From the NCBI RefSeq assembly GCF_053078305.1, contig NZ_CP166879.1: a stretch of DNA of 64,000 nt. One strand, written 5' to 3'. Numbering within the stretch: the stretch's first letter is position 1; every line of letters begins with the position of its first letter. The notes below the pieces were generated by a model. That model had not been told where the DNA came from, searched no databases, and saw only the letters and a list, made by a program, of their open reading frames with translations. Made by a program: the position numbers and the translations under genes. Positions 55,276 through 58,176 of the stretch are shown here, piece after piece.

Positions 55276-58176
55276 ATGCTGCCAGACCAGCGACCAGCGA
55301 CCAGCGACCAGCGACCAGCGACCAGCGACCAGCGACCAGCGACCAGCGACCAGCGACCAGCGACCAGCGACCAGCGACCAGCGACCAGCGACCAGCGACC
55401 AGCGACCAGCGACCAGCGACCAGCGACCAGCGACCAGCGACCAGCGACCAGCGACCAGCGACCAGCGACCAGCGACCAGCGACCAGCGACCAGCGACCAG
55501 CGACCAGCGACCAGCGACCAGCGACCAGCGACCAGCGACCAGCGACCAGCGACCAGCGACCAGCGACCAGCGACCAGCGACCAGCGACCAGCGACCAGCG
55601 ACCAGCGACCAGCGACCAGCGACCAGCGACCAGCGACCAGCGACCAGCGACCAGCGACCAGCGACCAGCGACCAGCGACCAGCGACCAGCGACCAGCGAC
55701 CAGCGACCAGCGACCAGCGACCAGCGACCAGCGACCAGCGACCAGCGACCAGCGACCAGCGACCAGCGACCAGCGACCAGCGACCAGCGACCAGCGACCA
55801 GCGACCAGCGACCAGCGACCAGCGACCAGCGACCAGCGACCAGCGACCAGCGACCAGCGACCAGCGACCAGCGACCAGCGACCAGCGACCAGCGACCAGC
55901 GACCAGCGACCAGCGACCAGCGACCAGCGACCAGCGACCAGCGACCAGCGACCAGCGACCAGCGACCAGCGACCAGCGACCAGCGACCAGCGACCAGCGA
56001 CCAGCGACCAGCGACCAGCGACCAGCGACCAGCGACCAGCGACCAGCGACCAGCGACCAGCGACCAGCGACCAGCGACCAGCGACCAGCGACCAGCGACC
56101 AGCGACCAGCGACCAGCGACCAGCGACCGTAAATCAAGAAAGTCTGTAAAATCTGTTGAACCAGACATTGCCGACCGGGCTAACAGCTGGCTCAAATCTT
56201 ATGGACTTGATTACAAACTGGAGCAGGCACCACTTAACAACGAGATCGATAACGCACTGGATGCTTATTTTTCGAAAAATGGCGGCGCAGGCGGTAATCG
56301 TCCCGACGTAAAACTCCTTGTTCAGGACAAATACGGCAAGCAGTATCCCGTTCTCATCGAGTATAAAGGCTACAAGGACAGGCTTATCAGACTTGGCAGC
56401 AACGGTATTATTGAGAACAAAGATGCCAGAAAAGAATGGAATTTTAAAAATATTAATGGATACGCGGTGAATGGCGCAGTCCATTATGCCAACGCACTTC
56501 TTCAGTTCACCAATTACCCTGATATTATTGCTATTGGTATGACCGGCTGGCGCGATGATGATACAGGCGAACTGCATCATGAAATCGGCGTGTGGTACGT
56601 ATCAAAGAATAATTTAGGAGCCGGGCAGAAGGTTGGTGAATTCACCGACTTATCATTCCTTGCTGACAAAAATGTTGATGGATTTCTCAACAAGATAAAG
56701 CTGCTTAATCTTCCTCCCGAAGAACTGGAAAAAATCAAGGCCAGCAAAGAGGAAGAGATAGACACGCGACTTTCCCGTCTGAATAACGATATTTACCAGA
56801 ATGAAAAGGGGCTTGGTGAAAGCGATCGTGTTTACCTTGTTGTGGCTACCGTTATTGCAACGTTGGGGATTCCGGGAAAGTTAGCACCGCTGGATAAAAA
56901 AGAACTGACCTCTTCAACGGAGGAGGACTTGCGTGATGGTGATATTATTTTCAGGAAAATAAGGAATTTTTTAAGGCTGAAAGCTGTTCCTGAAACAAAA
57001 AGAGAAATGATTTTGCGCTCGTTGCAAAATACGCTGTGGACTGAAAACATTAACAAACCAGTCAACGGTGAAAGCCAGTTAAAGCGCGTGTTTGTTAAAG
57101 TTGTTGATGATCTTGGGGAGTATTACAAAATCGGACTGACCACCGATTTTACGGGCAAACTGTTTAATGAGATGTATCGCTGGCTTGGATTTACGCAGGA
57201 CAAACTCAATGACGTCGTTCTGACACCACCTTATGTTGCCACATTGCTGGCACGACTCGCCAGAGTAAACAAAGATTCCTATGTGTGGGATTTTGCTACA
57301 GGTTCTGCGGGATTGCTTGTGGCTGCAATGAATGAAATGCTCATTGACGCCAGAGAAAATATTCACTCACCGAATGAACTACAACTTAAGGAAGCGCAAA
57401 TCAAGGCTGAACAGCTTCTTGGCCTTGAGGTGTTATCCAGTATTTATATGCTGGCCATCCTGAATATGATTTTGATGGGGGATGGTAGCTCGAATATCCT
57501 CAATAAAGACTCGCTAGCCGATTTTGACGGCAAGTATGGATTTGGGAAAACAGGAGAAAAATTCCCTGCGGACGCATTTATTCTCAATCCTCCGTATTCA
57601 GCTAAAGGTAACGGCATGATTTTCGTGCAGAAGGCGCTGTCGATGATGGATAAAGGCTATGCTGCAGTGATTATCCAGAGTTCAGCCGGCACAGGAAAGG
57701 CTACGGAGTACAACAAAAAAATACTCAAGGAAAATACCTTGCTGGCAAGCATCAAAATGCCTGCGGATCTGTTTATTGGTAAATCAAGCGTTCAGACGTA
57801 CATTTACGTTTTTCAGGTAAAAATTCCGCATAACGCGAAACAGGCTGTTAAGTTTATCGACTTTTCCAATGACGGCTATGCTCGCTCTAATCGCAAAAAG
57901 GCAAGAAACAATCTTGTTGATGCCGATCGTGCAAAAGAGCGTTATCAGGAGGTTGTGGATCTGGTTCACTTCGGGAAAGGTTGCCTTAATATCTTTACGG
58001 AGGATGAATATTTTGAGGGAACAATCGATCCTGATAGTGGTGAGGACTGGAATCAGACTAGGCCAGTAGATACCAGACCGACACTGGAGGATTTTAAAAA
58101 GACGGTTGGCGACTATCTTGCGTGGGAGGTGTCAAAACTTCTTCAGGGGCGTGATGCGTCAGAAAAAAAGCAGTAA
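55276..58176 (+). CDS. gamma-class N6-adenine DNA methyltransferase with N-terminal DQRPATS repeat domain and candidate PD-(D/E)xK nuclease module (BcgI-A-like / HsdM-like)
   Basis: 966-aa frame; ATG at 55276 with an AGGA RBS. Motif X/I ...VVLTPPYVATLLARL...VWDFATGSAGLLVAA; motif IV FILNPPYS. Between the repeat and the MTase: RPDVKLLVQDKYGKQYPVLIEYKGYK. Contains the 120 x 7-nt repeat in frame. Confidence 0.8.
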   Translation: MLPDQRPATSDQRPATSDQRPATSDQRPATSDQRPATSDQRPATSDQRPATSDQRPATSDQRPATSDQRPATSDQRPATSDQRPATSDQRPATSDQRPATSDQRPATSDQRPATSDQRPATSDQRPATSDQRPATSDQRPATSDQRPATSDQRPATSDQRPATSDQRPATSDQRPATSDQRPATSDQRPATSDQRPATSDQRPATSDQRPATSDQRPATSDQRPATSDQRPATSDQRPATSDQRPATSDQRPATSDQRPATSDQRPATSDQRPATSDQRPATSDRKSRKSVKSVEPDIADRANSWLKSYGLDYKLEQAPLNNEIDNALDAYFSKNGGAGGNRPDVKLLVQDKYGKQYPVLIEYKGYKDRLIRLGSNGIIENKDARKEWNFKNINGYAVNGAVHYANALLQFTNYPDIIAIGMTGWRDDDTGELHHEIGVWYVSKNNLGAGQKVGEFTDLSFLADKNVDGFLNKIKLLNLPPEELEKIKASKEEEIDTRLSRLNNDIYQNEKGLGESDRVYLVVATVIATLGIPGKLAPLDKKELTSSTEEDLRDGDIIFRKIRNFLRLKAVPETKREMILRSLQNTLWTENINKPVNGESQLKRVFVKVVDDLGEYYKIGLTTDFTGKLFNEMYRWLGFTQDKLNDVVLTPPYVATLLARLARVNKDSYVWDFATGSAGLLVAAMNEMLIDARENIHSPNELQLKEAQIKAEQLLGLEVLSSIYMLAILNMILMGDGSSNILNKDSLADFDGKYGFGKTGEKFPADAFILNPPYSAKGNGMIFVQKALSMMDKGYAAVIIQSSAGTGKATEYNKKILKENTLLASIKMPADLFIGKSSVQTYIYVFQVKIPHNAKQAVKFIDFSNDGYARSNRKKARNNLVDADRAKERYQEVVDLVHFGKGCLNIFTEDEYFEGTIDPDSGEDWNQTRPVDTRPTLEDFKKTVGDYLAWEVSKLLQGRDASEKKQ
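55288..56127 (+). repeat. perfect heptanucleotide tandem repeat (CAGCGAC) x 120, 840 bp
   Basis: Read directly: 840 nt of uninterrupted CAGCGAC units beginning 12 nt after the MTase ATG; translated in frame as 40 x DQRPATS. Confidence 0.97.

Follow-up and report, generated by a model that had tools for sequence, protein, structure and literature searches.

Phase variation in Escherichia coli is classically ascribed to DNA inversion or Dam methylation. In Campylobacter jejuni, the Type IIG restriction-methylation enzyme encoded by cj0031 is said to have been described by Anjum and colleagues in 2016 as phase-variable via a poly-G tract. Repeats also control hsdM genes of Type I restriction-modification (RM) systems, with a survey describing a pentanucleotide tract in Haemophilus influenzae and ACAGC[10-40] in Mannheimia haemolytica (PMC7383803), and in the Type III mod phasevarions of Haemophilus, Neisseria, Moraxella, and other genera N6-adenine methyltransferases are switched ON and OFF at random via an intragenic repeat (PMC8287963). 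Here we analyzed a stretch of 64,000 nucleotides (nt) from contig NZ_CP166879.1 of NCBI RefSeq assembly GCF_053078305.1 (hereafter, the window), in which a prophage RM gene carries a long tract of the heptanucleotide CAGCGAC close to its start codon. We consider it likely that this tract is a hypermutable simple-sequence repeat that serves as a contingency switch, turning translation of a Type IIB RM system of the prophage ON and OFF.

Like cj0031, as reported, the gene encodes a fused restriction-methylation polypeptide with a repeat, so that restriction and methylation would switch together; unlike it, cj0031 has a homopolymer, encodes a single chain with built-in specificity, is chromosomal, and lacks a specificity (S) fusion made by frameshifting. 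The gene resembles the repeat-controlled Type I hsdM genes in having a repeat unit that is not a multiple of 3 nt at the 5′ end of a methyltransferase-bearing gene, with tract length setting the ON or OFF state in those genes (PMC7383803), but differs from them in its 7-nt unit, in reaching 120 units (840 base pairs; bp), in residing in a lambdoid prophage of E. coli and Salmonella, and in encoding a nuclease in the same gene. The survey's main text contains no Escherichia case and only tetra-, penta-, hexa-, and octanucleotide units (PMC7383803). With the Type III mod genes it shares an N6-adenine methyltransferase with an intragenic repeat tract (PMC8287963), whereas the enzyme type is a different one and the nuclease motif is intact and conserved.

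A regular-expression scan found CAGCGAC exactly 120 times without a break, and Tandem Repeats Finder (TRF) reported one array at 55285-56128 (period 7, 120.6 copies, 100% matches, zero indels), bearing out the count and the position given in a preliminary description of this DNA. No tandem pair of the unit (CAGCGACCAGCGAC) was found elsewhere in the 64-kb window by sequence scan. Direct reading of the sequence agreed with that description in placing the tract 12 nt past the ATG and in its in-frame translation, (DQRPATS)40: the open reading frame (ORF) of 966 amino acids (aa) reads MLPD, then (QRPATSD)n, then RKSRKSVKSVEPD..., with RKSRKS following the tract. The heptapeptide (QRPATSD)n is encoded in each forward frame, and the tract contains zero stop codons in all six frames. 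Both alternative frames terminate no more than 22 nt past the tract end, at the two TAA stops that had been described, and in the window allele the frame is kept only when the copy number is divisible by 3. At other loci that were read, ORFs from the main ATG in out-of-frame alleles likewise terminated at the post-tract TAA stops. The locus thus has a unit that is not a multiple of three within a reading frame (120 x 7 nt, 100% perfect), placed between the functional start and the enzyme domains and followed by early stops at other lengths, as at contingency loci. Because 840 bases are perfect, chance is not at issue; the figure of exactly 120 copies, on which the ON state of the window depends, comes from one assembly.

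The effect of tract length depends on where translation starts. In the window, the first in-frame start past the tract is a GTG at codon 398, which lies beyond the nuclease motif and has no Shine-Dalgarno sequence. Tract-free homologues start 5-10 residues ahead of an SVEPxIAD motif, a position at which the E. coli gene lacks an in-frame start. Since no usable start was found past the tract and the start site of the homologues is void of a start codon, the tract would gate translation of the full enzyme; initiation past the tract, which according to the preliminary description would make tract length irrelevant, is unlikely. In all of the 28 other loci read (L001-L020, L044, L210-L216), an out-of-frame ATG was present 8 nt upstream of the main start (GGATGATTTTATG; hereafter, ATG(-8)), and the window has ATA (55268-55270) in its place. 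ATG(-8) abuts the AAGGA element with poor spacing, and a GTG at 55229 has no Shine-Dalgarno sequence. In out-of-frame alleles, the Prokaryotic Genome Annotation Pipeline (PGAP) starts ‘HsdM’ at a TTG or GTG farther downstream, again a codon without a Shine-Dalgarno sequence, and in L001, L003-L020, and L210-L216 it annotates a ‘YXWGXW repeat-containing protein’ or a ‘hypothetical protein’ antisense to the tract. As the tract is open in six frames, these antisense calls and downstream ‘HsdM’ starts look like annotation artefacts.

The locus was found in 28 of 5,426 complete E. coli genomes and in one isolated phage, PhiR12_3, as well as on many IMG/VR prophage contigs that were often broken or collapsed at the tract. 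Salmonella also carries it, with one contig beginning within a tract remnant. The tract was read directly in 29 loci and was perfect in 25, the other 4 (L003, L004, L014, L018) having evident assembly errors. The counts were 16, 23, 23, 30, 30, 49, 53, 55, 55, 57, 63, 63, 64, 65, 75, 76, 78, 80, 81, 82 (in four loci), 88, 88, 91, 93, 98, and 120. Which copy numbers are in frame depends on the junction allele, of which there are several: n mod 3 must equal 0 in the window type and 2 in the CAGCA type. Of the perfect tracts, 5 were in frame with the main ATG, 8 with ATG(-8), and 12 with neither, a distribution that did not differ significantly from an even split (chi-square 2.96, p ~0.23). The survey of related prophages that the preliminary description had proposed thus found copy number to be polymorphic (29 loci, 16-120 copies, all three frames), which supports its suggestion of a slipped-strand phase-variation switch.

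Copy number varied among close isolates, as at contingency loci. Thirteen loci with 0-1 differences across the 900-bp upstream and 900-bp downstream flanks had ten different counts, ranging from 30 to 98. Near-clonal sets also differed: 23, 23, and 30 copies in the OkiPb set; ~91 in Symbioflor G1/2, 82 in G6/7, and 98 in G8; and 82 and 75 in the UCPROB set. By these comparisons, the tract gains and loses copies much more quickly than bases are substituted, and natural alleles include all three frames.

The tract contained a long poly-C run in the public ‘complete’ assembly of L004 (2015C-3121), and in those of L003, L014, and L018 it had lost single nucleotides or gained a CGCAC insert. Given such junk inside tracts, counts and frame calls based on assemblies need read-level checks; the earlier warning that such tracts are prone to assembly trouble was well placed, with short-read contigs breaking or collapsing there and errors in 4 of the 29 tracts read. 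Three IMG/VR contigs (L021, L026, L032) carried 8-11 units of CAGCGAC among unrelated genes, with an array of the hexamer CAGCAC immediately after them. One Planctomycetota metagenome-assembled genome (MAG; JALHRW01..., L053-L124) contained dozens of CAGCGAC arrays among the matches listed, on both strands and often at contig ends; it dominated a scan of species-representative genomes for four units, which was uninformative on other Enterobacteria. Hairpin-driven repeat instability was considered and rejected, since ten units of either strand folded no better than shuffled sequences.

The preliminary description had called the gene a methyltransferase gene; the methyltransferase part of this holds, whereas the gene encodes a fused restriction endonuclease-methyltransferase rather than a stand-alone methyltransferase. 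The PADLOC model REase_MTase_IIG matched over its full length (E=4.8e-234 with the 682-aa part that follows the tract), and Pfam searches with the same part found N6_Mtase (PF02384) and, weakly, VRR_NUC at the N-terminus. In an alignment of 32 homologues, the nuclease residues P59, D60, E78, Y79, and K80 were invariant, and the residues of this motif map to beta strands in the N-terminal domain of a predicted model. This AlphaFold model, generated from the 32-sequence alignment, was poor (predicted local distance difference test score 63.5), and its Foldseek matches, to HsdM structures and to the BsaXI RM subunit 8w0p_A (identity to BsaXI ~16%), are weak support only. PDB sequence searches with the protein and with a profile gave zero matches, and NCBIfam gave only sub-threshold HsdM and MADS matches. 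A look-up of the exact 966-aa protein found no record. A nuclease and an N6-adenine methyltransferase were therefore found in one polypeptide, as in Type IIB enzymes, by motifs, PADLOC, and Pfam, and by Foldseek at low confidence. Because the nuclease lies within the same polypeptide, restriction would switch along with methylation. The intact and conserved nuclease motif argues that defence is at least retained, rather than that the role is purely epigenetic.

The described Type IIB enzymes BcgI and BsaXI combine a nuclease-methyltransferase fusion with a Type I-like S subunit that has two recognition domains, in a complex of composition (RM)2S, according to PMC3592470 and PMC11997821; BsaXI is an (RM)2S heterotrimer (PMC11997821). 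The gene studied here shares with them an N-terminal PD-(D/E)xK nuclease and a gamma-class methyltransferase, and the S-like frame that follows it has two recognition domains but no start codon of its own, whereas BcgI and BsaXI have a separately translated S and no repeat tract. By its sequence, it is a BcgI/BsaXI-like Type IIB RM fusion followed by an S frame.

Between tract-bearing alleles, the ratio of nonsynonymous to synonymous substitution rates (dN/dS) of the RM gene was 0.05-0.06 at dS ~1.2; as at contingency loci, the gene is intact and under purifying selection. In the E7-1N7 allele, which is 81% identical, the tract occupied the same position and was 100% CAGCGAC, with 63 full units by regular expression and 64.0 copies by TRF. 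The unit was therefore unchanged across alleles with saturated synonymous divergence. Homologues of 62-78% identity from Neisseria, a Providencia prophage, and metagenomes begin M-x(5-10)-S(I/V)EPNIADL and are without the repeat, and the tract-free Providencia prophage homologue sits past a Q-like antiterminator. A non-expanded enterobacterial allele (L179) had three degenerate units, GACCAAC GACCAGC AACCAGC, and the alleles L218 and L219 had one unit each. Viewed across these homologues, the tract is a clade-specific expansion of the native N-terminus, apparently homogenized by slippage.

The S frame lies in the -1 frame relative to the RM gene and lacks its own start codon. It is open from ahead of the RM stop, reading KKAVNSRLAELEREF..., and contains two recognition domains around a central helical repeat; the earliest canonical start in it, a TTG at 58251, lacks a Shine-Dalgarno sequence. 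The PADLOC profile Specificity_II matched this frame (E=1.3e-18), as did Type I S profiles, and PGAP annotates a ‘restriction endonuclease subunit S’ in L001. Between the recognition domains, IEELEAAH occurred three times in the window, L001, and L044 but only twice in phage PhiR12_3; shuffling of the domains themselves among alleles was also seen. In EcoR124I and EcoR124II, the repeat number in the central S region alters the spacer of the recognition site. The S alleles analyzed here probably differ in specificity.

The heptamer A_AAA_AAG is that of programmed -1 frameshifting in dnaX, where it is accompanied by a downstream hairpin. The RM gene ends in GAA_AAA_AAG_CAG_TAA and thus resembles dnaX-type frameshifting in having the same heptamer in the window allele, a short spacer, and a stable hairpin, an arrangement that would give two products per message in a set ratio. 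Seventeen distinct homologous loci, some of them from Neisseria and Providencia, had an X_XXA_AAR heptamer followed by a stop. The arrangement recurred in each related class that was examined, among them E. coli alleles and diverse viral contigs. Other loci (including L165, L167, L175-L189, L202, L044, and L217) had a G_GGA_AAG/A or A_AAA_AAA heptamer, with the stop codon directly after G_GGA_AAG or G_GGA_AAA; L193 and L218 were weaker and retained only A_AAR plus the stop. Hairpins were folded for each sequence separately, anchored on the conserved VEWG codons. All 13 distinct G_GGA_AAR loci had a hairpin of 11-14 bp located 4-6 nt past the heptamer (-16.5 to -24 kcal/mol). In these 13 stems all pairs were canonical, with several positions showing at least two pair types, e.g. 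C-G, U-A, and U-G (two-sided changes). In L202, a relative of only 28% identity, the heptamer and stop read A_AAA_AAA_TAG and the stem was perfectly compensated. When 17 mixed junction sequences were given to RNAalifold, the consensus had only 7 pairs, the two hairpin classes and 1-nt register shifts being misaligned.

Downstream of the slip site, the -1 frame was open for ~370-400 aa in nearly all intact homologous loci, and in most loci the first canonical S start lay 62-176 nt past the RM stop. The S frame begins with a motif conserved across genera, GK(V/I)(N/D)(S/A)xL...V(E/K)WGE, and more distant relatives have an S that uses an ordinary overlapping ATG. The features of a frameshift cassette were therefore found together: a zero-frame slippery heptamer, a conserved downstream structure, and an open, startless, and conserved downstream frame. 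From the startless S frame and the conserved slippery site and hairpin we infer frameshifting, and S is probably made only as an RM-S fusion via this -1 event (predicted fusion 1,361 aa; RM 966 aa). RM and RM-S, one each, would match the (RM)2S composition of BcgI and BsaXI, and an engineered EcoKI M-S fusion was active when free M was present (PMC3510504). No report of natural frameshifting between RM and S genes in a restriction system was found in a literature search. Since S would be tied to RM by the frameshift, an out-of-frame tract would silence restriction, methylation, and specificity together.

Replication slippage at a 7-nt repeat yields loops that mismatch repair corrects poorly. 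In the mechanism that we propose, ribosomes would start at the ATG (55276), whose Shine-Dalgarno sequence is good, and read MLPD and then (QRPATSD)n; with a tract length that keeps the frame they would continue into the PD-(D/E)xK nuclease fused to the N6-adenine methyltransferase, and with other lengths they would reach a TAA no more than 22 nt past the tract. Units of 7 nt would be gained and lost by replication slippage, as is general for slipped-strand mispairing, so that each lysogen population would be a mixture of ON and OFF cells, with one tract gating restriction, methylation, and specificity at once. A wider reading, on which our judgement is close to balanced but leans slightly against, is that the locus is a contingency locus of a temperate coliphage that switches a complete Type IIB RM system at the stx position, with S made only through the frameshift-made RM-S that sets (RM)2S; the phage may then hedge its bets, with some progeny methylated and others not, and some lysogens defended and others not.

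Several observations weigh against a contingency switch. Only about 1/4 to 1/5 of the natural alleles are in frame with the main ATG, and a neutral repeat would look similar. No promoter was detected next to the RM gene, which may be silent in lysogens. ATG(-8), present in most alleles, might permit alleles of a second length class to be weakly expressed, though not in the window; in H. influenzae, lic1 is said to use a second start for another length class. Exactly 82 copies recurred in four strains (L002, L016, L019, L214), namely an ECOR13 phage, a bovine O111:H8 strain, Symbioflor G6/7, and UCPROB-002, with nine loci of the same flanks having other counts; the instability is therefore not so great that each lineage differs. 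Counts from long-read assemblies can also be wrong, as the obvious errors in 4 of 29 tracts illustrate. Part of this picture would follow if the tract were a neutral hypervariable minisatellite, prone to slippage, that had expanded at the N-terminus of a seldom expressed prophage accessory gene, where it is tolerated, with ON/OFF variation as a by-product. The roughly even frames, with most alleles out of frame with the main ATG, the lack of a detected adjoining promoter, a low cassette G+C that fits an acquired accessory gene, and tracts far longer than a switch requires are all in keeping with such neutrality. A dN/dS of ~0.05, however, implies that the intact frame must often be expressed, the tract keeps one position and an identical unit at dS ~1.2, and the existence of non-expanded alleles implies that expansion is avoidable. 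We consider neutrality unlikely; mechanistically it predicts the same ON/OFF heterogeneity and differs only on adaptive value.

Tract length would be irrelevant if translation started elsewhere, either at an internal GTG or ATG, giving a nuclease-less methyltransferase in OFF alleles, or in another frame at the upstream ATG(-8) or the GTG at 55229. PGAP does put TTG or GTG starts downstream in out-of-frame alleles, and ATG(-8), found in 28 other loci, is used by gene callers (MILCCQTSDQ...). Yet the downstream codons lack a Shine-Dalgarno sequence and the first of them in the window lies past the nuclease motif, ATG(-8) is badly spaced and is ATA in the window, GTG 55229 lacks a Shine-Dalgarno sequence, and the site used by tract-free homologues, just ahead of SVEP, has no start codon in E. 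coli, which together make this quite improbable. The peptide itself might be what is selected, as a length-tunable disordered N-terminal domain, (DQRPATS)n, with frameshifts incidental; in line with this, the same heptapeptide is stop-free in each forward frame, in-frame alleles extend it by ~70 to 280 aa, and a degenerate DQRPATS occurs in the non-expanded L179. Homologues of other genera nevertheless do without the repeat, most natural alleles are out of frame, and selection on the peptide would be expected to leave synonymous variation among units, whereas the units are DNA-identical across diverged alleles; we regard a selected peptide as very improbable. That the tract or its count arose by mis-assembly is hardly credible. 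Short-read contigs do break or collapse at the tract, and some long-read assemblies contain junk (the poly-C run in 2015C-3121, 1-nt deletions elsewhere), but 28 complete genomes, produced by many laboratories on many platforms, and the genome of an isolated phage all carry the tract at one position, and it was perfect in 25 of 29 loci. The assembly artefact that the preliminary description had named as a way for its proposal to fail is thus excluded for the tract itself, and doubt is confined to the exact number 120 and the ON call of the window.

The positions of the features discussed here and of the neighboring phage elements are collected in Table 1.

Table 1. Features of the RM-S cassette and its upstream neighbors in the window.
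Feature	Position	Strand	Remarks
Antiterminator Q gene	54296-54745	+	ORF list; in 27 related loci PGAP calls an ‘antiterminator Q family protein’ at this position
pR′-like sigma-70 promoter (predicted)	54742-54769	+	TTGAAA-16-TAGAAT, directly past Q; consensus scan 10/12
hok/sok-type toxin-antitoxin module	54776-55094	+	Between Q and RM; Rfam sok 54776-54947, 97.6 bits
Shine-Dalgarno AAGGA	55264-55268	+	7-nt spacer to RM start
RM start ATG	55276-55278	+	
RM gene	55276-58176	+	966 codons; repeat peptide, PD-(D/E)xK nuclease, helical connector, gamma-class N6-adenine methyltransferase
CAGCGAC tract	55288-56127	+	120 perfect units; regular expression and TRF
TAA stop, +2 frame	56130-56132	+	One per alternative frame
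TAA stop, +1 frame	56147-56149	+	One per alternative frame
Nuclease motif RPD...(x17)...IEYKG	56299-56370	+	PD-(D/E)xK type
Methyltransferase motif I, DFATGSAG	57289-57312	+	Invariant in 32-homologue alignment
Methyltransferase motif IV, NPPY	57586-57597	+	Invariant in 32-homologue alignment
Slippery heptamer A_AAA_AAG	58164-58170	+	Followed by CAG and the RM stop
RM stop TAA	58174-58176	+	
RNA hairpin, putative -1 frameshift stimulator	58172-58211	+	Minimum free energy -20.9 kcal/mol, z = -3.16
S reading frame	58170-59360	+	-1 relative to RM; open from slippery site (AVNSRLAELEREF...)
24-bp repeat	58657-58723	+	2.8 copies, perfect; encodes IEELEAAH between the S recognition domains; TRF

Repeat-controlled RM genes are well known; what sets this locus apart is the host, the prophage carrier at the stx position, the Type IIB class, the unit and length of the repeat, and the coupling of RM and S by apparent frameshifting. 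In the lytic coliphages T2 and T4, homopolymers in agt form contingency loci whose reversible frameshifts trade off host restriction systems, and the preprint that describes them states that no phage contingency loci had been reported before (bioRxiv 10.1101/2025.10.21.683753). Unlike the present locus, those are short homopolymers in virulent phages, and the preprint is silent on temperate phages, methyltransferases, and heptanucleotide repeats. A literature search found no paper with two tandem CAGCGAC units, and this putatively repeat-switched RM system is absent from recent reviews on phase variation and on how methyltransferases are regulated, REBASE and subscription journals being outside the search. 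If our interpretation is true, two things would be new: a repeat switch carried by a phage in E. coli, and the use of frameshifting by a restriction system. A heptanucleotide tract of 100-800 bp would add repeat slippage to the modes of E. coli phase variation, with temperate phages as carriers of the switch.

The tract also explains why ‘HsdM’ calls are truncated, why ‘YXWGXW repeat’ proteins are annotated in antisense, and why contigs break. In carriers among Shiga toxin-producing E. coli, commensal, and probiotic strains, methylomes and phage susceptibility may be heterogeneous within a culture. The frameshift, if real, would be a new natural use of recoding that fixes the subunit ratios of a restriction enzyme, from Neisseria to enterobacterial phages, in a family that is easily mis-annotated.

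The cassette lies in a lambdoid prophage, flanked by Q and hok/sok upstream and by genes for a SASA-type esterase, a holin, and a lysozyme downstream, and the chromosome around the prophage is that of E. coli (nrdAB-yfaE-inaA region). Its G+C content is below that of the phage, and a ‘Hok/Gef family protein’ is annotated in related loci. The slot between Q and the lysis genes is the one where Stx phages carry stx; as Shiga toxin genes use the same late-operon slot, regulation of the cassette bears on the expression of such accessory genes. Transfer RNA genes, which lie there in Stx phages, were looked for close to the cassette and not found. A consensus scan detected no promoter between the pR′-like site and the RM start codon; since the cassette lies downstream of Q and this pR′-like promoter, its expression may peak after induction. 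In Providencia (L167, L168) and in metagenomes (L218, L219), RM-S cassettes without a tract or with a single unit lie directly past a phage antiterminator and ahead of holin genes, which indicates that the late-operon location is conserved across genera.

An Rfam match to the small RNA STnc100 (59719-59930, 167.6 bits) was located in the interval between the S gene and the esterase gene. Elsewhere in the window, two arrays of a 24-bp repeat (TACCTTCCTGCAAACC...) lie ~200 bp apart at 3234-3292 and 3467-3547, and an 87-bp repeat of 1.9 copies at 17496-17664, in the chromosomal part, resembles repetitive extragenic palindromes and bacterial interspersed mosaic elements (REP/BIME).

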